Positions 28,926 to 51,700 of a DNA stretch of 64,000 nt are shown piece after piece. The notes under the pieces were generated by a model, which was not told where the DNA came from, searched no databases, and saw only the letters and a list, made by a program, of their open reading frames with translations. Positions within the stretch are counted from its first letter, which is position 1; each line of letters starts with the position of its first letter. The stretch comes from Podarcis pityusensis (taxonomy: Eukaryota). The translations under genes and the position numbers were made by a program. The stretch is from the NCBI GenBank assembly GCA_964106645.2, contig OZ067048.1. One strand, written 5' to 3'.

Positions 28926-29825
28926 TGTTGTTGTTGTTTAGTCGTTTAGTCGTGTCCGACTTTTCGTGACCCCATGGACCAGAGCACGCCAGGCACTTCT
29001 GTCTTCCACTGCCTCCCGCAGTTTGGTCAGACTCATGTTTGTAGCTTCGAAGACACTATCTAACCATCTCGTCCTCTGTCGTCCCCTTCTCCTTGTGCCC
29101 TCCATCTTTCCCAACATCAGGGTCTTTTCCAGGGAGTCTTCTCATGAGGTGGCCAAAGTATTGGAGCCTCAGCTTCACAATCTGTCCTTCCAGTGAGCAC
29201 TCAGGGCTGATTTCCTTAAGAATGGATAGGTTTGATCTTGCAGTCCATGGGACTCTCAAGAGTCTCCTCCAGCACCATAATTCAAAAGCATCAATTCTTC
29301 GGCGATCAGCCTTCTTTATGGTCCAGCTCTCACTTCCATACATCACTGCTGGGAAAACCATAGCTTTTACTATACGGACCTTTGTTGGCAAGGTGATGTC
29401 TCTACTTTTTAAGATGCTGTCTAGGTTGGTCATTGCTTTCCTCCCAAGAAGCAGGCGTCTCTTAATTTCGTGGCTGCTGTCACCATCTGCAGTGATCATG
29501 GAGCCCAAGAAAGTAAAATCTCTCACTGCCTCCATTTCTTCTCCTTCTATTTGCCAGGAGGTGATGGGACCAGTGGCCATGATCTTCGTTTTTTTGATGT
29601 TGAGCTTCAGACCATATTTTGCGCTCTCCTCTTTCACCCTCAATAAAAAGTTCTTTAATTCCTCCTCACTTTCTGCCATCAAGGTTGTGTCATCTGCATA
29701 TCTGAGGTTGTTGATATTTCTTCCAGCAATCTTAATTCCGGCTAGGGATTCATCCAGCATAGTTCATAGCTTCTCTGAGTTCTTCAAGCCCCTTCATCAC
29801 GGCAAGGCAGTGATCCATGAAGGGG
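28926..29825 (-). mobile_element. Internally deleted BovB (RTE) LINE: short 5' segment joined to ~830 bp of 3' end
   Basis: ORF 29056..29760 is RT (NLRYADDTTL) with small indels near its 3' end. (CAA)n tail at 28926. TSD ACAATTACACT at 28915-28925 and 29826-29836. Confidence 0.9.
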
Positions 29826-30654: not shown

Positions 30655-30770
30655 ATATAAGGGTCTGGTGACTTCTGCTTCACTGTAATGAAGTGTGCAT
30701 GCACACGAAAGTTTATACCCAGAACAAACTTAGTTGGTCTATAAGGTGCAACTGGACAATTTTTTATTTT
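30655..30770 (+). mobile_element. Penelope-like element terminal (pLTR) relic with a decayed hammerhead
   Basis: Colinear with about 46347-46470 (AAGTGTGCATGCACACGAAAG...AACTTAGTTGGTCT..AAGGTGC.ACTGGA). Confidence 0.75.
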
Positions 30771-31292: not shown

Positions 31293-34200
31293 ATGGAAAC
31301 AAGGGAGGGCGCGGCGGCGGCGGCGGCGGCGGCTCCTCTTGAGGGCTTCGTTGAAGAGACAGCAGAAGAAGCCCGACGGCTCGTGGGCGAGGAGGGGCAG
31401 GAGAAGCTGGACCTGGTGTCGCTTTTAAGGTCAGGCCCTCTCTGTGTATTGGTGTCGGGCGGAGTCTCAACACACAGAGAAACACTCACACTCCCTCACA
31501 TAGGAGCCAACGCCCTTCGCTCCCCCATAAAATATTTGAAGGGGCCGCCCCCCCTAAAGTTGATGGGCATTGCCATTCAAATAGTGAACGTGCGCCACGT
31601 CATGTGATTGATTATTGTTGTTCCGCCTGGCCTTTGGCTTGGAGCCAATTTGATTCCCTTCCCCTCTTTCTTTTTTCTTTCTCCTCCTGTGATGAGGCTG
31701 CATTTTAATGTTTCAATATTTTAATGTTGTATTTTAATCTTGTTTTTAAGTTGTATTCATTCAACTTATTTTTATTATTGCTTGTTAGCCGCCCTGAGCC
31801 CGGCCTTGGCTGGAGAGGGCAGGGTAAAAATTATTATTATTATTATTATTATTATTATGCCTCCCCCCAAAAAATATTTTATTCATGTTGGCACCCCTGC
31901 CGTCTCTACAGGCACCCACACACAAACACACACACACCCCTCCAAACTGCCGCATTTTCTGTTAAAAATCATGGTGAATTTGAATTTCTATGCCACCTCT
32001 GTAATATTATTTAGAAAAAAATGCATTGGAAGCATGCAAACCTTAATTGTGCATATTTAGTTATTTATTAAAGTGCCCAGGTTAGTGCAGTGGGTCTGTG
32101 CATCTGGCTGTTAACCAGAAGGTTAGTGGTTTGAGCCCACCCGGGATGGCTGTGGGCAGGATTCCTGCGTTGCAGATGACCCTCGGGATCCCGCCCAACT
32201 TTATGATGCTGTGGCTTTTATTTGTTGCTTCCCAAAGAAAAAATGTCCTGAAGGGATTTAACAGTGAAAACATGCATAAAAAACAACTTGGGGTCCAATG
32301 CAAAACAAAAATCTACCCTTAAGAGGCTCGTGGGAAAAGGAAAGTCTTCAAAAGACTATAGAGGCAGCATCTGATATGCAGTGGGAGGGAGTTCCAAAGA
32401 GTAGGTGCTGCCATGCTAAAGCCCCAGTTTCTACATTGCATGGAGCAGGCCTCCTGAGGATATGTTATCTGTAAGAAACCCTCTCCTTCAGAGTGCAGTC
32501 ATAGGCTGGGCATAAAAGGATAAGATTATATTTTAGGAATTATGGTTCCAGGCTGTATTGGGCTTTGTCTAGCTGTATTGACATTACAGCTAGTTGAGCC
32601 ATTGTGTTTTGCATTAGCTGCAGCTTCCAGACCAATCTCAATGGCACCCACACACCCTCACATTATAGGTTATAAGTTTCAAGTGGTATACTATGCTTGA
32701 GCCCAGGCCAGCTAATTATGATTCATTAAGAGAACAAAGGGAATGACTCTGTGCCAGAGGCCAAATGGGTGGGCCTCCCTCCCTGATTAGTTAAAGGTAA
32801 AGGGACCCCTGACCATTAGGTCCAGTCGTGGCCGACTCTGGGGTTGTGGCGCCCATCTCGCTTTACTGGCCGAGGGAGCCAGCGTACAGCTTCTGGGTCA
32901 TGTGGCCAGCATGACTAAGCCGCTTCTGGCGAACCAGAGCAGCACACAGAAACGCCGTTTACCTTCCCGCCAGAGCGGTACCAATTTATCTACTTGCACT
33001 TTGATGTGCTTTTGAACTGCTAGGTTGGCAGGACCCTGATTAGTTAGGTAAAAGTAAAAGGCCATAGCTGAAAATTCAGTTATGTGAATGAGAAGTTGGG
33101 AGAGAGGCTGCAGGCTGCAATGGCAGAGAGAGTGTCATGGCTGATTTCTTCTGGAATCCAAGGTTGTGGTAATGGGAGAAGCAAGATTCTTTCGGGATGT
33201 TAATTTTTTATTATTATTAAATTTGTATACTGCCCTTCATCTGAAGATTGGGCCTTTCTAAAGACATACCCAGCTCCTCCTTTAAAATGCTGATCAGAAT
33301 GCTACTGTCTTTGATTTCAGTATCAGATAAAAGGTGGATGCTATTAATTCATATGTGAACAAGATAAATTTTCTGTAAACTACTACCAGATCCACTCTCT
33401 TGATTTTTTTCTGTTAATTTGTTTTTTTACTTTGTAGAGTAAGAGAACAAATAAAGCAACAACTTTTGGAATATAATGCAACAGTTAATGCAAGTAAGTG
33501 TGTGACTACCATTGTGAAAAATAAAAACTTTCTTATGTTTATATATTGCTAAATAAAAAACACAGTACAAACATGTAAAGTTATTTGATAAGCCCTTGTT
33601 TAGAAAGTAAATACCAGGATGAAGTCTCTTGAGGACTTTATTTCTCTTTGTGATGTATAATCCTATGAAATGGTGTTCTGAAACTTACTATACTATTGGC
33701 ATGTTCCTCTTGGGGGGGGGGAAGTGTTTTTCAGTTACTTCTAACATATTCATCTTTTATGTGACAGATGAAGAAATCATTACGGATCAAGTTATTGATG
33801 AAAAGGCCATTGTGAGGTGTGTCATCATAACTTATTAATGAATATGCTACTATGATGTTTCCATGGTTTCCCCCCACGTACAGTTCAAACAAGCAAAAAC
33901 TTACCATATTTTTTGCTCTATAAGACTCACTTTTTCTCTCCTAAAAAGTAAGGGGAAATGTGTGTGCGTCTTTTGGAGCGAATGCAGGCTGTGCAGCTAT
34001 CCCAGAAGCCAGAACAGCAAGAGGGATTGCTGATTTCACTGCGCAGCGATCCCTCTTGCTGTTCTGGCTTCTGAGATTCAGAATATTTTTCTTCTTGTTT
34101 TCCTCCTCCAAAAACTAGGTGCGTCTTGTGGTCTGGTGCGTCTTATAGAGCGAAAAATACGGTACTTTTGTGCTCTATGCAAAAGGCAAAGGACTAACGG

Positions 34201-40200: not shown

Positions 40201-42389
40201 TCTGCTTTCCTTTGGACCACAGCAGCGAGGCCAAGAGGGGGCGGTCTTGTCATCTGGGCATCCCAGGACCTCCATACACACTGCTCAGGCTTATGCCCCA
40301 GGGAGGTCACTTTGGTGCTGCTAACTCAGTGTTTTGACTTCACCTCTGGAAGAGCACTCCATTGTCTCTTGAGGTAGACGGATGCCAACAAGTATTACTC
40401 TGACAACCGGGGTAGATATTTTTTACAAAATGTATTAATGAACTGCATTTTTAATATAGCAGTCACGTGAACTGGAAGAAAAATTGAATGAAGTTAAGCA
40501 GAGAAGACAATGTAAGTTTTTTAACCGTAGTGAAATATTGGTTTCCCTTTGGTATCTTATAAAGGTGGTGTGCCATGAAAATGAGAGTGTGTTGGAAACA
40601 TTATCATTCCACCCAATGATGGATGTGCACATTATAAATTCTCATGGATAGTCAGTTTGGTGGTTAGTGCAAAAGGGGTGTGGTAAGGAAGGTGCCCCAA
40701 GAACAGTATAAAGGCCACATCACAGTAGCATTGTGTGCAATTACACAGGTGGTAAGGCTTCTTTCTGTGGGCATTCAAGAACAATAACAGAAATAGGTAA
40801 GCATCCCCACAAAGTTTTCCGTTAACTCCTCCAATTCTGGTTTTACTGGATGATTACTGCCACTTGCTTTACTCATACAGTGGTACCTCAGGATGCAAAC
40901 GGGATCCGTTCCGGAGCCCCGTTCACATCCTGAAGCGAACGCAACCCGTCTGGGGGGGGGTCGCGATTCGCCGCTTCCGCGCATGCGCAAGACGTCATTT
41001 TGAGCATATGCGTGAGCGGCATCGGTCCAGCTTGCTTCTAAACAGCCTGGCACTCCCTGCTCAAAGTTTGCTTTTACTATATAAGATCACTTACCTTTGA
41101 TTTTTGTTCACTACTCAGTGCTGACTTACTACTTTTTACAGTGTTGAAATGCAATACTTGCATTGTAGTAGCTTCTTTAAGTGTTTTGTAGCTCGTTATT
41201 GGTTGTATTAATACTATGCATGCCCATAAATCTGCTCTGGAAGGTCCCCCAACCCTGTGGAGCAGCTTTTGAGGGTGTACAGATGGCTGCAGGAGGGGGG
41301 AAAAGGAAAGGGAATTGAAGTTGTGTCAGATGGAAGTCTGTTCTGCTCACGAAACAGCAGCATTGGATAAAACTCTACATGTGTTTAGAGTTCTAACGGT
41401 TTAAGCATGGTGTGTGGAATGGAGGCATACAGCCATACCTTGGAACTTGAACGGAATCTGTTCCGGAAGTCCATTTGGCTTCCAAAATGTTCAAAAACCA
41501 GATCATGGCTTCTGATTGGCTGCAGAAGCCTTGTTGGACATTCGGGTTCCCAAAGAACGTTCACAAACCAGAACAATCACTTCCAGGTTTGCGGTGTTTG
41601 GGAGCCAAAACTTATGAGTTCCAGGGTGTTCGACAACCAAGGTACAACTGTATTTCTTTATTTTAAAACCGTGTCATAAATCACTCACTACAAAGCCTCT
41701 TCTTGCACTAGGGTTTGGGAAATAATCAAGTTCATAGTTTCATATTTTTCTCCTCATAATTCAATAGCACTAAAGCAAGCTATGGATTGCAAACTGGCAG
41801 ATATACATAATATGAATATGAAACGAAAAGAGGAACTGGACAATATGGAAGTGAGTGAAATGTTGAAGAAGGCCCGTAGAAATCTGCAAAAGGAAATTGA
41901 GATGACGACATTGATTCAAAACATCTTCCAGGTAAAACTGCCTCTGAGAAGGACAGATTAGTTCATTTTGATCACCTATGACAAATCTGTACTAAATATA
42001 AATTGAGTCAGTTTATATCCTACTAGCAAGAATGACTTTACTGATGAGAAAGCTGCTTTTACTGGGGAATTTTGTGATCTATTGACAGTTTAATATATTA
42101 AACTTTTAAATTTCTGTGCATAGATGGAGAATGACCAAACGTATAACTTGCACGATGCATGACCACTTTCTTTTATCAGCCCACATTTTTTCCCCTTTTT
42201 TAGTATTGACATCCTGAAGAGAGTTCCATTTGCTATTGGGAGCATGAAGTAGCTGAAGTATTTCTTTAAAAGCTAAACAAATTGATTTTGTTTCAGAATC
42301 TCATTATTGGAAGTGAGGTCAATTGGGCAGAAGATCCAGCTTTGAAGGAAATTGTTCTGCAACTGGAGAAAAATGTGGCTAGAATGTGA
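31293..42389 (+). CDS. CENPH: Centromere protein H, 9 exons, 248 aa
   Basis: Exons 31293-31429, 33438-33493, 33768-33816, 35175-35249, 36503-36559, 38443-38506 (GC donor), 40460-40511, 41768-41931, 42297-42389 (747 nt, in frame). Coiled-coil protein ending IQNIFQNLIIGSEVNWAEDPALKEIVLQLEKN. Lies between CCNB1 and MRPS36 as expected from synteny. Confidence 0.93.
32794..33033 (-). mobile_element. 5'-truncated Sauria-type SINE
   Basis: AAAGGT tail at the left end. TSD CCCTGATTAGTTA (32781-32793, 33034-33046). Confidence 0.85.
33904..34162. mobile_element. Tc1/pogo-type MITE (CCGTATTTTTCGC family), short form
   Basis: TA-flanked TIRs and an internal ~30-bp-stem hairpin at 34003-34073. Confidence 0.85.
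35663..36190. mobile_element. hAT-type non-autonomous transposon (CATAGCTGTCAAC TIR)
   Basis: TIRs CATAGCTGTCAAC / GTTGACAGCTATG, perfect 8-bp TSD CATTTAGC and subterminal TAAGGGA repeats. Confidence 0.88.
37575..37697. repeat. (GTTT)n and (TAA)n microsatellites
   Basis: Read directly from the sequence. Confidence 0.85.
38681..40390 (+). mobile_element. Non-autonomous RTE-like retroelement (5' UTR-like segment plus 3' tail) interrupted by a MITE
   Basis: TSD AGTATTACT (38670-38678, 40391-40399). 3' end CATTGTCTCTTGAGGTAGACGGATGCCAACAA. The RTE assignment rests on recalled resemblance only. Confidence 0.55.
39198..40198. mobile_element. Tc1/pogo-type MITE (CCGTATTTTTCGC family), long form with a 90-bp tandem array
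   Basis: TIRs CCGTATTTTTCGCACCATAGG / CCTATGGTGCGAAAAATACGG with TA TSD. About 4.3 units of ~90 bp (39392-39780) and a ~158-bp duplication (39781-40080). Confidence 0.88.
41430..41650. mobile_element. Diverged Tc1/mariner-type MITE
   Basis: TA-CAGCCATACCTTGG ... CCAAGGTACAACTG-TA. Confidence 0.6.
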
Positions 42390-43439
42390 AGAAGCAGAGC
42401 AGTACATTTTCTATGGTCTGCTGATTCAGAGGAGAAGCAGTAGTCTGACAAGCTATTGTGACAAAGAGGTGTGTTTTCATAATCATAACTCCAGTGGCGC
42501 TTAATTATATTGATGCACAGATGGACTTGAAAACTTCCTGCTGTAAAATATGTTGCCTAATTTAATGGCTAGATTTGTTTGCTCTACCTTGGAAGAACCA
42601 TTCCAGTTTTATGGAAGGAGTTATTAACGGAGAGTATTGTAACTGCAACATTCTTCCCACCGCCTCCTCAATTTCCAGAGAAATTATTGGCTGTTGCCTT
42701 GGAACGAAGACAGAGCAACAGGTTTGCCTTTTAAATCTTATTTCCTGCTGGGAAGGCAGGAATGCCTTTCCTTACATTTTGACTTTCTTTACCACCTATA
42801 ACGAGCACATCATTTTTATGTGTGCCAGTGGAAAGCAGCTTAGCATTTTGAGGGATCATTTTTGTGATCATTTTTGTTATATTCAATGGATTTCCAAAGC
42901 CACTTCACTACATTGGTATGTTATGCATGTTTAGTTAACTGTTGTGCATTTAAATAGTTGGCTGCCGCTATTATTGCAGTGCCATCAGTATACATGTAAC
43001 ATTGTGCATTTAAGTGTTTCATTAAAAAGTTAGGTGCCTGACTCCAAGGAACTTGAAATCTAAAATAATGAGGAACATAATGAAGGGAAGGACAGGGGTG
43101 GAGAAATTTTACTGTAGAATGACCATAGGTTAGAATTCTTGTATTGTTTATACATGTTATGCCATAGTATTGGCTGCATTTGCAGTGAAATAAAATAGCT
43201 TTATGTGTTATCCTATATGGTTTGGAGGGTTCAAACCTCTTACAAGCTTAGCACTCATGGGAATAAGATGTGGCCCTCTTGTGGAAGGATGGTTATTGGT
43301 TTGGTTTGCTTTTATTGTATATTTTGCATCTTCATTTTGTATTTTTATGTTGTGAACCATTCTGTGGTCTTCACATGAAGGGTGGTATATAAATCAAAAA
43401 AATAACTCTTGTATATCAGGAATGGTTCTACGAAGGGAG

Positions 43440-43990
43440 GTAAATTGGTGGTGATTGGCCAGGAACAAGATCTTGGGGTCATGTTGATCCACTATATAGC
43501 AGTTGCAAAAAATATAAATTCCATGCTAGGGATCATTAGGAAAGAATTAAAAATAAAGCTGCTGATAGCATAATGCCATTATACAAATCTATATTGCAAC
43601 TGTATTCCTACTGCCCGTAGTTCTGGTTGCCTTACTTCAAAAATGATACTGTTGAGTTGGAAAACGTTCCAAAAAGTGAAAAGCAAAATGATCAAGGAAA
43701 TGGAACAATTCTCCTATAAGGAAAGGCTGCAGCATTTGGAGGTGTTTTTTAATTTAGCTAAGAGGTGACATAATATAAACGTGTGTGATGCTGCCATGGA
43801 GAAAGTGGATCAAGGCAAGTTCTTCTCCCTCATAACATTTGACTTGTAGCTATCCTATGGAGCCAAATGTTGGGAGATTCAGAACAGACAGAAGAAAGTA
43901 CTTCTTCACACAGCACATATTTAAAACCATGGAATTTGCTCCCACAAGAGGCAGCCACGACCACCAAGCCAGATGGTTTAAAGGAGAATT
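43440..43990 (+). mobile_element. Degenerate CR1-type LINE 3' fragment
   Basis: Recognisable CR1 RT-end motifs (GATCTTGGGGTC...GCTAGGGATCATTAGGAAAG...TACTTCTTCACACAGC) with many stops. Confidence 0.6.
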
Positions 43991-43995
43991 TAGGT

Positions 43996-44256
43996 CAGGG
44001 GTCAGCAACCTTTTTCAGCTGTGGGCCGGTCCACCATCCCTCACACCATGTGGTGGGCCGGACTATATATATTTTTTTGGGGGGGGAGAGAATGAACAAA
44101 TTCCTATGCCCCACAAATAACCCAGAGATGCATTTCAAATAAAAGCACACATTCTACTCATGTAAAAACACGCTGATTCCCGAATCATCTGCGGGCCAGG
44201 ATTGAGAAGGCAATTGGGCCACATCCGGCCCACGGGCCTTAGGCTGCCTACCCCCA
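43996..44256. mobile_element. hAT-type non-autonomous transposon (same family as 3362-3664)
   Basis: TIR CAGGGGTCAGCAACC and TSD ATTTAGGT/ATTTAGGC. Confidence 0.8.
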
Positions 44257-44305
44257 ATTTAGGCAAACCTTGGAGGATAAAGCCTACTGAAGGCTACCAA
44301 CCATA

Positions 44306-44313
44306 ATGGCTAT

Positions 44314-44353
<40 letters not shown>

Positions 44354-46207
44354 TTTTCCCTCCACTGTGTAAGATACAACCCAGATCTCAGAAACAACCC
44401 AGACATTATAATTAAAGAAGCAGACAAAGGTGGAGCTGTCGTCATCATGAACAAAACTGACTACATTCAGGAGGCTCACAAACAACTTTCCAATACCGCC
44501 TTTTACACAAAATTGGACTCAGACCCCACACAAGAATACAAGAAAGAACTGAACAAGATTGTTAAGGAACTACCCCCACACATCCAAGAACAGATCCTCA
44601 CCAACACACCAACAGAACCTCGACCAGGAACTTTCTATCTTCTACCTAAAATACACAAACCAGGAAATCCAGGACGCCCCATCATTTCAGGTATTGGCAC
44701 TATTACAGTGGGTGTCTCCGGTTATATGGACTCTGTTCTGAAACCATATGCCATCAGTGCTCCCAGCTATGTACGTGACACCACAGATTTTCTGAGGAAA
44801 ATACAATCTTTAAATAATCTTCCCAACAATACTATACTAGCTACTATGGATGTGGAATCTCTGTATACCAACATCCCACACAACGATGGTTTACAAGCTA
44901 TAAGGAACACCATTTCAGATAAAACCACAGCGGACCTTGCCACCAAACTCTGCCAATTTGTCCTTACCCACAACAACTTCAAATTCGGTGATGACCTGTT
45001 CCTTCAGATCAGCGGCACAGCAATGGGCACCCGCATGGCCCCACAGTATGCCAACATCTTCATGGCAGATTTAGAACAACGTTTCCTAAACTCCTACCCA
45101 CTCAAACCTCTCTTGTACCTACGATACATTGACGATATTTTTATCATCTGGACACATGGTCAACAGACCCTGGATACCTTTCACCAGAAATTTAATGATT
45201 TTCACCCCACAATCAACCTTACAATGAATCAATCTATGCAAGAAATACATTTTTTGGACACTACTATAAAAATACAGGATGGGCGCATAGACACCACCTT
45301 ATACCGTAAACCAACTGACCGACAAACATATCTACATGCCTCTAGCTACCATCCCAAACATACCAAACAGTCCATTGTATACAGCCAGGCACTACGTTAC
45401 AGCCGCATCTGTTCCAATTCTACAGACAGAGACTCCCACCTAAGAGATCTACAGCAAACCTTTTCAGAACTAAAATACCCAGCAGATGAAGTTAGACAAC
45501 AGATCAACAGAGCCAGACTTATACCCAGAGAGAACTTGCTGCAAGACAGACCCAAAAAAGAAAATAACAGAACACCTCTAGTCATCACATACAGCTCCCA
45601 AGTTAAAACAGTACAACGCATCATCAGAGATCTACAACCTCTCCTGAACAATGACAGTTCTCTTTCTCAAGCTCTGGGAGGAAGACCTTTCATTGCCTAC
45701 AGACAGCCACCCAATCTTAAACAACTCCTAACCCACAATAATACTACAACCAGACTTAACACGGACACTGGCACCAGAGCCTGCAATAAACCCAGATGCC
45801 AACTTTGCTGCCACATACACCCGGACAACACCATTACTGGCCCCAACAACATCACACATACCATCTCGGGACTATTCAATTGCTCATCATCTAACATTGT
45901 GTATGGCATCAAATGCCAACAGTGTCCTTCAGCTCTCTATATTGGACAAACAGGCCAAACCTTACGCCAAAGAATAAATGGACATAAATCTGACATCAAG
46001 AATCACAAAACAGAGAAACCAGTAGGAGAACACTTCAATCTCCCAGGACATTCTATACAAGATCTCAAAGTAGCTGTTTTACTACAAAGGAATTTCAGAA
46101 ATAGACTGGAAAGAGAAACTGCTGAATTGCAACTCATTACCAAACTTAAAACCATGGAGACACCTGGTTTGAACAAAGACATTGGATTCTTATCCCATTA
46201 TACATGA
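44306..46207 (+). CDS. Penelope-like reverse transcriptase / GIY-YIG endonuclease (element-derived part starts near 44381)
   Basis: ADKGGAVVIM, YLLPKIHK...GRPII, DVESLYTNI, GTAMGTRMAPQYAN, RYIDD, Cys-rich linker CNKPRCQLC, and VYGIKCQQCPSALYIGQT...RINGH...GEHF...GLN. Confidence 0.9.
44314..44346. repeat. (CT)n microsatellite
   Basis: Read directly from the sequence. Confidence 0.9.
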
Positions 46208-46505
46208 CTAAGCCATTTCTCACCTTCTCACCCCTTGCCTTTTCCTGTAAGACCTATTACAGTCGTTAAGAGTCGTCAGCAGGCTCATCTCAGCTATCTC
46301 CCATTCCCACCACCCTTCTGAGTAATACCCCTCCCCACCTTCTCACTATATAGAAGGATCTGGCAACTTCTGTTTCAGTGTATCTGAAGAAGTGTGCTTG
46401 CACACGAAAGCTCATACCAAGAACTAACTTAGTTGGTCTTAAAGGTGCTACTGGAAGGATTTTTTTATTTTGACTATGGCAGACCAACACGGCTACCTAT
46501 CTGTA
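44379..46505 (+). mobile_element. Penelope-like retroelement (Neptune-type), 5'-truncated, young
   Basis: Uninterrupted RT plus GIY-YIG ORF, a 3' terminal region containing a hammerhead, and a 15-bp TSD ACTGTGTAAGATACA (44364-44378, 46506-46520). Confidence 0.93.
46380..46417 (+). ncRNA. Minimal type I hammerhead ribozyme
   Basis: GTAT-CTGAAGA-A-GTGTGC-TT-GCACAC-GAAA-GC-TC^ATAC. The core is intact, helix II has 6 bp, helix I is GTAT/ATAC, and palindromic AGCT replaces helix III. Predicted cleavage is after C46413. Confidence 0.8.
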
Positions 46506-46568
46506 ACTGTGTAAGATACAGTACAGGATGGGAGAGAGCAGTTCTGGTTGCAGACTTGTCGTAGGTAT

Positions 46569-47591
46569 TGTAAGAATTTAAGGTCTAAAAAAGGTAAAGG
46601 TAAAGGGGCCCCTGACCATTAGGTCCAGTCGTGACCGACTCTGGGGTTGCGGCGCTCATCTCGCTTTACTGGCCAAGGGAGCCGGCGTACGGCTTCCAGG
46701 TCATGTGGCTAGCATGACTAAGCCACTTCCGGCGAACCAGAGCAGCACACGGAAACGCCGTTTACCTTCCCACTGGAGTGGTACCTATTTATCTACTTGC
46801 ACTTTGACGTGCTTTCGAACTGCTAGGTTGGCAGGAGCAGGGACTGAGCAACGGGAGCTCACCCCATCGTGGGGATTCGAACCGCCGACCTTCTGATCGG
46901 CAAGCCCTAGGCTCTGTGGTTTAACCCACAGCACCACCCACGTCAAGGCATGTACAAGGCAAACAGATACATAAACCACATGTCTGAATCAGTACAGGAA
47001 GGCAGTCTGGAAACCATTTTGACTCTCCCAAATTGACCAAATGTTTCTCTGCAAGGAGGGAGGAAATGTCTCTGTGCTAACCAATCCTGCCGTAAGGGCA
47101 CATTTAAGGTGTGAATAGGGTGAGCCTGTGACCTGGATTCAGGAATTAAGTAGTTATAATAAAAGAGTGCTCAAAACCCAGATAATGCATTCAGGTAACC
47201 TGCCAGACATAAACAACACACTCAGGATTCTGTTTTAGACTGCCCCCTGTGTTGTATGTATGATGCATTGTGGAAGGTGGTCCTGGGATACACCCCTTCT
47301 GTGATGTATGTATGATGTTTCTGGGGGGTGGTCTGGAGTTTGAGGGTGGGCAATTTACAAGGTCTCTATAAGGGCCTTTGTTCTGGGTTTCTCCTCCCTC
47401 CGGCATGTGGTGAGTGAGGACCCTGTTGCAACAGTTTAATAAAGATGAGACTTACTAGCTGCTTTGCTTCTCATTATTCTCTGGTTGGTCTCTGTTATTT
47501 TCTCCTACCGATGGAGAACCTACAAAAGGACTCTGTATGGGCTCTTGGGTACCCCATAAGGGAAAAGGAGCAGGTTTTTCTCCTCATAACA
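46569..47591 (+). mobile_element. Probable solo LTR interrupted by a SINE
   Basis: TGT...ACA ends with GTAT on both sides (46565-46568, 47592-47595), TATAA near 47367 and AATAAA near 47438. The left boundary is uncertain. Confidence 0.5.
46591..46942 (-). mobile_element. Sauria-type SINE, full length
   Basis: Reverse complement of the 5593-5943 family, with an (AAAGGT)n tail at the left end. Confidence 0.88.
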
Positions 47592-47750
47592 GTATCTAGT
47601 TGGCCACTGTGGGACCAGGATGCTTTTGAGGTGGGCCAAGGGCCTGATCCAGCAGGGCTCATATGAAGAAGTTCCCAACGGAAATAAATCCAGCAGGCCA
47701 TTGCTACTGGTTTCTTGATAGCTTTAGGACACCCCCGCCATCCATAAGAC

Positions 47751-47887
47751 CAGGCTTCCTCAACCCTGGCCCTCCAAATGTTTTTTGGCCTACAGCTCCT
47801 ATGATTCCTAGCTAGCAGGACCAGTGATCAGGGATGATGGGAATTGTAGTTTCAAAACAGCTGAAGGGCCGAGTTTGAGGAAGCCTG
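47751..47887. mobile_element. Short palindromic MITE (CCTCCAGATGTT / ACTACAAYTCCCA family)
   Basis: TIRs CAGGCTTCCTCAA / TTGAGGAAGCCTG, with CATAAGAC on both sides. Relatives lie near 15745-15866, 53240-53370 and 55934-56050. Confidence 0.75.
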
Positions 47888-48039
47888 CATAAGACCATCC
47901 TTTCTAGAGAATTAGCTTGCCTTGCACTAATGAAATCAATGGACTTGGAAAACAAAACACACTTTCCCTGTCCCAGTAGGAACTTTTTACTTATTTTTTT
48001 CCCTCGGCTGTTAAGGACAAAATGAGACAAAGCGAGTGT

Positions 48040-48750
48040 CAGGGGCCCGCCCAGGCTTGTCAGCTTGGACTCTGAGCAGTTCAGTAACGCGGCGTGTGGC
48101 GCCCGCCCGGCCTCTTCTTTCACGGAAGCCGCCCGACGGATCCGCTCCGTGCGCTGAGCGCCGCCGTCAAGGCCCCTCCCGTGGGCGGCGCTTCGCTAGG
48201 CCGCCGCCCGCTCCTCCTCGAAGCCCCGGCCCCCGTCGGCGCGCACTTTCTCCTGCCTGGGCCGGGCGGGCCGGCGGTCACCATGGGCAGCAAGATGGCG
48301 GCCGCCAGTAGGGTCGTTCAGGTAAGTCCTTTAAGGCGTTTCTGCCGCAGGAGACCCCGCTCCGGCTTGGCGCACGGCCGGGCCTCGCACCTCTGGGCCA
48401 GGCTTCGGCGTCCGGCGGCGGGGAAGCGGGTCCCTGGCCCCGTGGGACTAGCGGAGGCCGGTGCCCTTGGGCGGGCAGGGGGAGAAAGCGCAGGAGGGAA
48501 GGCGGTCGAGGGGGGATGCGCTGCCTGCCGACCTCGGGAGAGGAAGGCGAGAAAGCGGCTCGGCTGGGGCCTCGTCACCTTGGCGGCTTCGGAGGGAAGA
48601 GGCAGAGAGGTTTGTTGTGCAGCCTTTCCCGGTCGCTTCGCCTGTCCTCCGCCTTTGCCCCCGAGGGTCCCATCCCAAAGCAACAGGGTCGCAATGCTGT
48701 CCTACGGTGCACCATCATCGGCACTATCATCTTCCTCATCGCCTCGGGAT
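48040..48750 (+). promoter_or_regulatory. MRPS36 CpG island / promoter
   Basis: GC/CpG-rich. CGGAAG near 48123 and a YY1-like CAAGATGGCGGC at 48291-48302 inside coding exon 1. Confidence 0.65.
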
Positions 48751-51700
48751 TAGATCCTTCTGGACTCTGCAATTTAACTCCGGATTAAGTCTCTCGTCTC
48801 AGCCCTCGTGTCAATGACAAGCCTGTCAACTGTAAATAAGAGTTGAGTGAAATATCAGCGTTTGCAGTTCCCCTGGCAAAAGAGGGAAATAAACTGTTGA
48901 ACTGGACATGTTGACGAGCAGTTTGACCCCGTTTTTGCTCACAGGCAATGTCTGAAAAGATTTCTGGCTGGCTTGGTGACTTGGAGAGAAGTGGCTCAGT
49001 CCGTTTTTAGTGCTTGGCACAGCGAGCGGGATGGTGATAATAACCAAAATGACTGGCAGTTTCCTGCCCTTTAGCAGTAAGGTGGCTAGAGCACCTTACT
49101 TAAATATTTGTACATCTTAAGTTTAGGGTGGAAAAGCAAAAGGTGTATAGGGAAAGGCATTGTTTGGAGTGCGAAATAAGTTTTTCTTCCTCTTTCATAT
49201 TATTGGAACTCAGGTCATCCCATGGAATTGATATTTGGCAGTAGAACTAGAATAGCCATATATATATATATAAAACTAATGTGCACAAAGCATTCATTAA
49301 CTTAGGGAATTCGCTGCCACAAGTTGTGCGAAACTAGACTTGATGCAAAATGTGTCATTATTAGCCACTTATTTTATGCTTTAAATGAAAATAATGCCAG
49401 GAGTAGGAGGAGGTGCTTTTCATCAGTACTGCAGCTTGTAATTGAAGTTAGATTTAAGCCTTTCCATAACTGCAGTTCCAACAAAAATCCCATTTTCATA
49501 CTTGCCATTGGGGTTTGTTTTTTTTTAAATATAAACATCGTTGCTAACAATTCTTTTAGTGCCACTTCTAGTTTGGCTCTTAGATGGCTTTAAAAGGGAA
49601 TTAGAAAAAGGTAGTTTTCCTATCATAGTTCTGTCATGCAGGTTTCCCTTATTCCAGCACACTTTACTCTTGCAGAACATAACAAATGATCTACATTTCA
49701 GACATCACAGCAGCTATAGACTGCCACTTGTGAGCAACATTCTGTGAGGATAGCAAGTGATATACTTCCTGACCACCCCTTAGGTAAACAGTAAACAGAA
49801 CAAAAAACCCTTTCTTCTCTGCAATAGAAATAATAATGGATAAAGAAACACTTCTGGAGAAATCTGTGCAATTCAAGTATGACTACTGGACCTTGTACTT
49901 AGTGCTTGTTAACTATCCATGCAGATAAACCTGCTGCCTTTTGTAGTACAGTAGTCCACCAGCTATGTTTCATTTGTCTTTGGATAGCATTAGATTGTGA
50001 ATGAATAAGTGGGTAGTGTTTTTAGAGTTTACATGATAGGTTTTGTTCTTCACTGCGCCAACATTTCAAATGTAAAAGTTGAACTCTTCAAATGTCTTTG
50101 TATTTTGCTCCCAAGCAAGCCAGTTTGCATTGTATCCCATTCTACTCAGAAGCCATTGCTGTTGCCAGTGTTCTGTTCCAAAAGGAGTTGGGTTGGGCTC
50201 CCCACTAAAATGCCATTTAGCAACAGTGCTTGGTGTATTACACCTTTTCTTTGCAAGAAAATGTGAATATGTATATTGAATTGCTGTCCTAGTTATCTTA
50301 CATTGCCTTCCATTTACCTGTTTTACTCTAGGTAGTGAAGCCACATACACCCTTAATTAAGTTTCCAGACAGAAGAAGTACTCCCAAACCTACAAGTAAG
50401 TATCTCTTTTTGTAAATGTTTGTTAATTTTATCTAGTAATGTTTTATCTAGTAATGTTTAGGAAAAGTTTGCCATAATACCATCCCATCCCAGGCTTATG
50501 TATTTATAAGTATGTTTTATTGGATTCCATGTAACCTACTTCCATGTAAAAGTGCATAGGATCACAGCCTTAGTCACCATATTTCTTTTGCTTAGACTGG
50601 AAATTGATGTTAACTGACATTTGCTGTTTCTTTGAACATACCATTCCAAAATACCATTCCCCTTTTCACTTAAACAAAGTTATTTTTGTTATTTTTTCTG
50701 TAACAGAATAACGTGGCTATTACTCTGAATGCTTCATGATCTAGGGTTTCCTGAATATTTTTGCTAAAGTAAATGGTTTAGAACCTGTTGCTTGTTCCTT
50801 CAGTACAGGAGCCTCTACAGTCAAGAGTGCCTCTGCCTCATGGTTCAGCCTCACAACTCTCTGCAGGAGGTGGGCCGTCATCATCTACAAATATTTCATT
50901 CTCCAGTAGAATTCAAGGCACACCTGACACTTCAGAATTAGTAAAAACGTTACCTCAGAAATATAGAAGGAAACCCATGTCGGTGGAAGAGATGGAGTAT
51001 ATCCAAGTAAGGTCCCAGAGATTTCCTACATAATTTATTCTTTGCATTTGTTTTACTGAAATATCTATTATGTTGCCTTTCTTTTATAAATTGGACACAA
51101 GGTGGCCATTAAATGAAATAGTTTAAAAATAAAAGCCGAGGGCAGTCAATGGGAATGTCTGCAATCTAGTGCTGTGTTGATAAAACAATAACCAGCATTG
51201 AAACGGTTCCAACAGCCTCATAGCTGTTGGAACAATAAAATAAGCATTAGATGAAAAACCAAACTGTCAAAACCTAGATAATAAGACAGCCTAGTGTCTA
51301 GAAAAAATTAGGTTGCCAGGTTTATCTTTCTTGGGATGAAGTTCCACAGATGGGGCGCAACTGCAGAAAGGGCCCCCTTTCTCCTAACCTTTTCTAAACT
51401 TTACCAACAGGGGCACCCAGAGAAAGTTTCTGATGATAAAAACACAAAAACTCTGCTGGATCAGACTAGAGACCTATGGATAGTCCCCAAGAAGGACCTG
51501 TTGCCAATAGCTCTTTTTCATTATTGTTTTTCAGCAACTGGTATTCAGAGGCCTGGTGCTTCTGTTCCTGTAGATACTGTATATCACAATTATCATTATC
51601 ATAATCATTATCATCTATTATTTGTACCCTGCCCATCTGACTGGGTTGCCCCAGCCACTCTGGGCAGCTTCCAACACATATAAAAACATGTTTTAATGTT

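Follow-up and report, generated by a model that had tools for sequence, protein, structure and literature searches.

A 5'-truncated Penelope-like element between CENPH and an MRPS36-like gene of Podarcis pityusensis, and the minimal hammerhead motif in its 3' pseudo-LTR

The DNA that follows the last CENPH exon (PF05837) in Podarcis pityusensis carries a Penelope-like element (PLE), and within the element lies a short motif that was described preliminarily as an intact minimal hammerhead ribozyme (min-HHR). The locus therefore raises the question whether this motif is a genuine hammerhead sequence, to which kind of element it belongs, and whether a lone copy could act on the RNA of its neighbours. 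We analysed the whole 64,000-nucleotide stretch of contig OZ067048.1 (assembly GCA_964106645.2), hereafter the window. The gene behind the element was read as MRPS36 from a weak PF10937 match (E 0.035), a reading that we take to be supported by the CENPH-MRPS36 gene order. The best overall explanation, which we hold with considerable confidence, is a minimal hammerhead in the 3' pseudo-LTR (pLTR) of a 5'-truncated PLE, likely of the Neptune type, inserted between the two genes as a lone and likely inactive copy.

The motif and the element that carries it

The letters at 46380-46417 are exactly those given in the preliminary description, with all core nucleotides in place. Helix I is formed by GTAT (46380-46383) and ATAC (46414-46417), a short helix of 4 bp as claimed; the boxes CTGAAGA (46384-46390, matching CUGANGA), GAAA (46406-46409, followed by GC) and UH are intact, and with U16.1 at 46412 and C17 at 46413 cleavage is predicted after C46413. 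An unpaired A (46391), standing between nucleotides 9 and 10.1, precedes helix II (46392-46405), which has the G10.1-C11.1 pair. The AGCU palindrome (46409-46412) constitutes the 15.1-16.1 segment of a hammerhead without helix III, again in line with the earlier reading. Helix II had been counted as 6 bp; ViennaRNA gives 5 bp with a CUUG loop, which is the better way to write it, and since the C-G pair inside a gCUUGc tetraloop is reported to be partly populated (PMC10401711), the count of six is defensible. From these letters, 46380-46417 is a real minimal hammerhead sequence with predicted cleavage.

A structure-aware min-HHR descriptor, which requires both core boxes together with helices I and II, matched 46380-46417 and nothing else on both strands of the window. 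Any match with at least 4 bp in each helix occurred in 8 of 300 dinucleotide shuffles, and with helix II of at least 5 bp in 3 of 300. The core-only pattern without helices gave 14 matches in the window against 9.8 expected, which is not significant, and the MFE z-score of the isolated fold (0.16) is unremarkable. The Rfam search that had been proposed as a check returned no hammerhead match, whether for 42000-49000 (E<=5) or for 46340-46520 (E<=10); with no covariance-model match and no helix III, the motif falls outside the canonical type I hammerhead of Rfam.

The PLE spans 44379-46505 and is bracketed by a target duplication of 13-15 bp (Table 1). Its reading frame ends with TGA at 46205-46207, and the hammerhead begins 172 nt after this stop, close to the distance of about 170 nt described before, inside the target duplication and at the location expected for a PLE hammerhead. 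The reverse transcriptase (RT) domain PF00078 covers query residues 139-287, and the GIY-YIG domain PF01541 was recovered with E 2.5e-4, just under the Pfam cutoff. Among the best protein matches is one relative at 98%, followed by turtle gene models at 65-70% identity. An alignment of 17 of the 120 listed homologs showed conservation of the RT motifs, of a linker of the form CX4CXXC, and of both the CCHH residues and the catalytic residues of the endonuclease (EN), with YIDD, the linker cysteines C471, C476 and C479, the residues C515, C518, H554 and H560, and R534 and E585 invariant. A single ORF with RT and, at its C-terminus, a GIY-YIG domain bearing CCHH residues is the organisation of an endonuclease-bearing PLE. 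A Cys-rich CX2-5CxxC linker between RT and EN marks Neptune, and also Nematis, elements (PMC8557442), and the linker found here points to a likely Neptune-type assignment.

Table 1. Coordinates of the features in the window
Feature	Position	Strand	Details
Decayed second pseudo-LTR fragment	30655..30770	+	81% identity
Target-site duplication, left copy	44364..44378	+	15 nt exact; 13 nt if element ends at 46507
5'-truncated stop-free ORF	44379..46207	+	RT + Cys-rich linker + GIY-YIG
3' UTR / pseudo-LTR	46208..46505	+	promoter motifs, hammerhead, T-run, tail
TATA box TATATAG	46347..46353	+	30 nt before predicted start, 37 nt before CUGA; putative function
Initiator-like TCAGT	46375..46379	+	predicted start A46377, 3 nt upstream of helix I
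Minimal type I hammerhead motif	46380..46417	+	sequence, descriptor, folding, covariation
Candidate structure 3' of hammerhead	46432..46498	+	folding; predicted
Likely PLE 'tail', ~41 nt	46467..46507	+	family reads show loose-end piles behind 46466 (possibly due in part to T-run length, an artefact) and behind 46507
Target-site duplication, right copy	46506..46520	+	exact repeat; family loose ends behind 46507

Because homologs run to 830-890 residues, approximately 250-280 N-terminal codons are missing from the copy. A contig of run X2 carries 338 nt of other sequence upstream of 44385, and therefore the family extends further 5'. The insertion looks young, its ORF being stop-free and its target duplication exact, and it is truncated at the 5' end and lacks the 5' pLTR. 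The tandem or partially tandem pLTRs needed for activity are thus replaced by a single truncated copy, and a second PLE ORF was not found in the 64 kb window. Of the proposed module of Penelope RT, GIY-YIG and self-cleaving RNA, both domains and the min-HHR motif are present; a working module at this locus is not, as the 5' pLTR and the N-terminal codons are missing. Nor is the hammerhead the 3' terminus of the element, as had been supposed, for the copy extends 92-94 nt beyond the cut site. Since the copy spans this site, the template RNA must have been uncut, or religated.

Several further observations concern the insertion and its surroundings. At 44306-44378, a flanking ATG opens a frame that crosses a (CT)n microsatellite and continues into the truncated ORF as a chimera of 633 codons, and the (CT)n tract beside the target site fits the reported insertion bias of Neptune. 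At position 45906 nearly all family reads disagree with the copy, in which a conserved Ala of the GIY-YIG motif has become Gly, and about 25 further differences from the family majority were seen among those listed. A very high-copy short element with inverted ends, presumably MITE-like, lies at 43996-44254, with reads showing an internal repeat joint from 44171 to 44108. Directly downstream of the PLE, at 46590-46945, is a repeat with a similar copy at about 32900-33000 (near 32950), both presumably SINE-like, and the segments 32-535 and 29056-29760 are presumably RTE/BovB-like RT fragments.

Family copies and known systems

Reads or contigs from 4 of the 24 listed runs (X1, X2, X21, X23) aligned to 42400-46590 at 85% likeness. 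Of the two RNA runs, X21 and X23, one was sampled to about 6% and the other to about 12%, and their source has fixed differences from the window in the CENPH 3' UTR, so that it is a related organism or strain that may lack the insertion; all read results refer to the best-supported of the listed entries, and contig depths are not copy numbers. Family depth climbs steeply toward the 3' end and reaches its maximum in the hammerhead bin. Between 46365 and 46398 the depth rises 2- to 12-fold, with no further rise at 46458, past the cut site (46458 against 46398: 469k vs 659k in X1, 47k vs 155k in X2, 388 vs 383 in X21, 720 vs 683 in X23), so that copies do not preferentially begin at the cut site. 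Among the entries listed for X21 and X23, reads did not pile up, by their starts or by their ends, at this site or at the predicted start, although this is only a weak test. The loose ends found ahead of 46380, 63 reads in X21 with an agreement of 0.41, would fit copies that begin near there; a conserved motif with diverging subfamily sequence upstream of it would give the same picture. The family is transcribed in sense, since nearly every read of the stranded run X23 over 44360-45619 has the orientation of the CENPH reads. The lone copy in the window is probably the inert product of a 5'-truncated cDNA.

In the family, position 46398 is A in 96.9% (X1), 98.3% (X2), 374/383 (X21) and 665/683 (X23) of the aligned depth. 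With this A, helix II forms a perfect 14-nt palindrome, as it does in about 97% of the reads of the family; the window copy carries T46398 and hence a rare CUUG loop variant. We considered the palindromic helix II as a dedicated dimerisation device and set it aside, given that the chance palindromy of a 4-nt loop is 1/16 and that the turtle motif lacks it, and because a double-swapped dimer through helices II and III looks, by reasoning only, sterically closed.

By its boxes and helices, the window hammerhead belongs to the min-HHR class of metazoan PLE pLTRs already described by Cervera and De la Pena (2014), who reported it in a turtle and in snakes (PMC4209133). In that work single min-HHRs did not cleave and dimers cleaved weakly, and Table S1 contains many 5'-truncated PLEs with only a 3' hammerhead. 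The Chrysemys picta motif of Fig. S3 resembles ours in its 4-bp helix I, CUGAAGA box, unpaired nucleotide before helix II, G10.1-C11.1 pair, GAAA box, AGCU palindrome and UH; by eye, it differs by one compensatory pair per helix, by H17 and by the loop, which is not palindromic, whereas helix II of the window family is. No lizard motif of the window family was found among the 56 motifs of that figure in the PMC4209133 supplement. What the present locus adds to the described class is the palindromic helix II of the family, the rare loop variant of the window copy, and a TATA box and initiator directly before helix I.

Another close comparison is PAc, a Poseidon element of Anolis carolinensis and like ours an RT and GIY-YIG PLE with a pLTR hammerhead, for which Frangieh et al. 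(2024, PMC11167929) reported that reverse transcription starts 85-92 nt past the cut and that uncut RNA is the main template. Cleavage of the PAc hammerhead needs protein and depends on C3 and G8; in vitro, core mutants left insertion unaffected, and no RNA-seq reads ended at the cut site. Genomic ends about 90 nt 3' of the cut (85-92 in PAc, 92-94 in the window copy), two end points that define a tail, and an uncut RNA template are common to both elements. PAc belongs to a different clade, the window element having the Cys-rich linker, and the PAc start codon lies inside the hammerhead, whereas the window hammerhead has no such ATG. Non-LTR retrozymes (PMC7229834; bioRxiv 10.64898/2026.07.22.740005) likewise bear a type I hammerhead in a PLE-related repeat; they are described as non-coding tandem repeats, whereas the window element is a single copy on a coding PLE end and is thus no retrozyme. 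In Adineta vaga, the Penelope pLTR has a putative TATA box and initiator (TCACT; Arkhipova et al., 2013, PMC3846280), an optional 31-nt tail and 8-10 bp target duplications, all of which can be likened to the window element; PMC3846280 is not known to relate that promoter to a hammerhead, whereas the initiator here abuts helix I.

We also scanned metagenomes with the core pattern, which gave 13 loci, none with family-level DNA similarity to the window element; 10 of them have a PLE ORF and form three families. Three bacterial matches have no PLE ORF. Viral contigs yielded 0 pattern matches and 0 confirmed protein relatives. One family, represented by locus L010, shares the 38-nt layout of the window motif, and 6 of 9 helix pairs differ from it on both sides; this comparison is of two sequences only, and the search pattern itself fixed the core as well as three pairs. 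Together with the published turtle motif, this is the helix I/II covariation that had been suggested as a check. In the two remaining families helices I and II are only 1-2 bp, which counts against strict structural conservation. These two families comprise tandem PLEs (L001-L007, L009 and L012; e.g., L006 840-6031) with RT frames of 610-640 codons, in some loci with endonuclease-like pieces that lie outside the RT frame, and with runs of (CCCTAG)n behind the pLTR; a telomere association and a variant hammerhead fold are possible for them. Well-formed minimal hammerhead-like motifs with a 4-bp helix II and a helix I of 4-5 bp, and no PLE ORF, were seen at L008 42-78 and near 2994 of L072.

Promoter motifs and predicted folding

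The spacing of -30 between the TATA box and the predicted start is canonical. TATAWAR occurs 35-37 nt before CUGA in the window element and in all three of the other PLE families, and at that spacing in 0 of 102 controls, that is, pattern matches in loci without a PLE ORF (drawn from a relaxed pattern that gave 120 stretches, 80 of them listed as loci, none with a PLE ORF); the background in the window is 1.2%. Some 250 nt beyond its motif, L010 has a frame led by an ATG. As TATA box and initiator directly precede helix I, both here and in the three other families, the hammerhead would sit at the very 5' end of the element RNA. An initiator-like YCABY was counted by eye in approximately 18 of the 56 motifs of Fig. 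S3 (PMC4209133) against 18 of 102 controls, so the link between initiator and hammerhead is not universal. We found no published link between start site and hammerhead in the literature searched, which included two retrozyme papers, and Lunse et al. (2017), Arkhipova et al. (2017) or the bioRxiv supplements may already describe the promoter link or the family.

It is quite unlikely, in our estimate, that the sequence before helix I is a splice acceptor rather than a promoter. A pyrimidine tract and CAG do end at 46378, and in Drosophila virilis Penelope an intron ends at helix I (PMC4209133) and the promoter is TATA-less (PMC2377424). On the other hand, the AG is absent from the 30655-30770 copy (TCACT), from L010 and from the turtle motif, and the TATA box stands 35-37 nt before CUGA in four of four PLE families.

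In all 18 contexts folded with sequence upstream of 46377, helix I had p<=0.12 and helix II p<=0.25, and in 14 of these 18 a hairpin between UUUCAG (46373-46378) and the CUGAAG core had p>=0.63. For RNA starting at 46377 or 46380 (six contexts) the values were 0.06-0.60 for helix I and 0.27-0.67 for helix II. Folding thus predicts that in CENPH read-through RNA the hammerhead core would be buried by pairing with the upstream UUUCAG. The classical helix III dimer, at -11.1 kcal/mol, is no better than two monomer folds at -6.0 each, and an off-pathway helix II duplex reaches -25.7 kcal/mol. 3' of the hammerhead, P1 (46432-46439/46481-46488; 8 bp, -8.8 kcal/mol) and P2 (46443-46449/46491-46498; 7 bp with a bulge, -4.2 kcal/mol), which crosses P1, form a possible pseudoknot around the T-run, between the hammerhead and the element end, and a candidate RT-binding or initiation element. 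In one X1 loose-end consensus behind 46466, with an agreement of 0.7, two positions of P1 are changed and their partners are not, which speaks weakly against the pseudoknot.

A partner in trans or a tandem copy had been thought necessary for a single copy to cleave, and neither the descriptor nor a pLTR comparison revealed an intact second hammerhead in the 64 kb window. The second pLTR fragment at 30655-30770 has lost the CUGA box through a 4-nt deletion; its helix II is a perfect 14-nt palindrome (30693-30706), and it ends in the T-run, without the tail. This fragment is a solo pLTR about 520 bp upstream of the CENPH ATG.

Alternative readings and a proposed model

The suggestion that the motif cuts CENPH read-through RNA with a partner in trans, and so shields the MRPS36 promoter, is very improbable. 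The motif is in sense to both genes, its cut site lies 3.2 kb downstream of an AATAAA (43189) and 1.9 kb upstream of the ATG (48283), and the abundant family RNA means that trans partners exist. However, the window holds no intact partner, the core is predicted to be blocked in read-through RNA, and RNA depth past the CENPH 3' UTR is low: in the unique DNA at 43520-43799 it is 0-0.6 in X23 and 1.1-1.5 in X21, compared with 10.7-14.4 in the CENPH 3' UTR in X21, the source being the related organism that may lack the insertion. Moreover, as the insertion looks young, CENPH termination predates it. The lone copy probably has no effect on its neighbouring genes. That the motif is a chance match has a negligible probability. 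The frequency of the core-only pattern, the unremarkable z-score and the missing Rfam match would suit such a match; the rarity of the full descriptor in shuffles, the expected position in a PLE, the helix covariation and the near-identical published turtle motif speak against it, and position, family conservation and covariation together refute it.

A more serious alternative is that the fold is kept mainly for binding or positioning of the RT-endonuclease, with cleavage rare or incidental, which we regard as possible, if somewhat unlikely. It is favoured by the derivation of copies from uncut RNA, by the PAc core mutants without effect on insertion in vitro and the lack of reads ending at the cut (PMC11167929), by the spread of Naiad PLEs without canonical hammerheads (PMC8557442), and by the two other PLE families that keep the core despite helices of 1-2 bp. 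Against it stand the conservation of catalytic boxes and helices among animals in the alignment of 56 motifs (PMC4209133) and the dependence of PAc cleavage on C3 and G8 (PMC11167929).

In the reading that we prefer, a minimal hammerhead in the pLTR of a likely Neptune PLE, the pLTR of an intact tandem element would likely start transcription at the TATA box and initiator 3 nt before helix I. The hammerheads of the 5' and 3' repeats would swap strands via the AGCU palindrome and helix I, probably aided by element protein, and slow cutting would yield unit-length RNA or the loss of a 37-nt capped leader. Mostly uncut RNA would be copied into DNA, reverse transcription likely beginning approximately 50 or 90 nt 3' of the cut site and usually stalling early, so that very many short hammerhead-bearing ends would be scattered. 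An asymmetric version of this model, tentative and in our view unlikely, supposes that a TATA-initiator-hammerhead cassette is conserved in many PLEs with the hammerhead transcribed first. The initiator UCAG can pair with the complementary CUGA core, so that folding would be confined to the copy at the RNA 5' end and the 3'-repeat copy would be blocked; the 5' core would then cut the 3' site and the cap would be spared. Were this true, cDNA running off from the tail as far as the start site would account for the flood of ~130-nt hammerhead-only copies.

As found, the hammerhead in the window is of little importance in itself, the motif being a described one that exists in very many copies. If transcription does start next to helix I, cleavage in the 5' repeat would remove the cap, and folding would differ between RNA that starts there and RNA that reads through; such start-coupled folding offers a testable logic for slow ribozymes and for copies made from uncut RNA. 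This young reptile family provides a clean test case for the role of PLE hammerheads.
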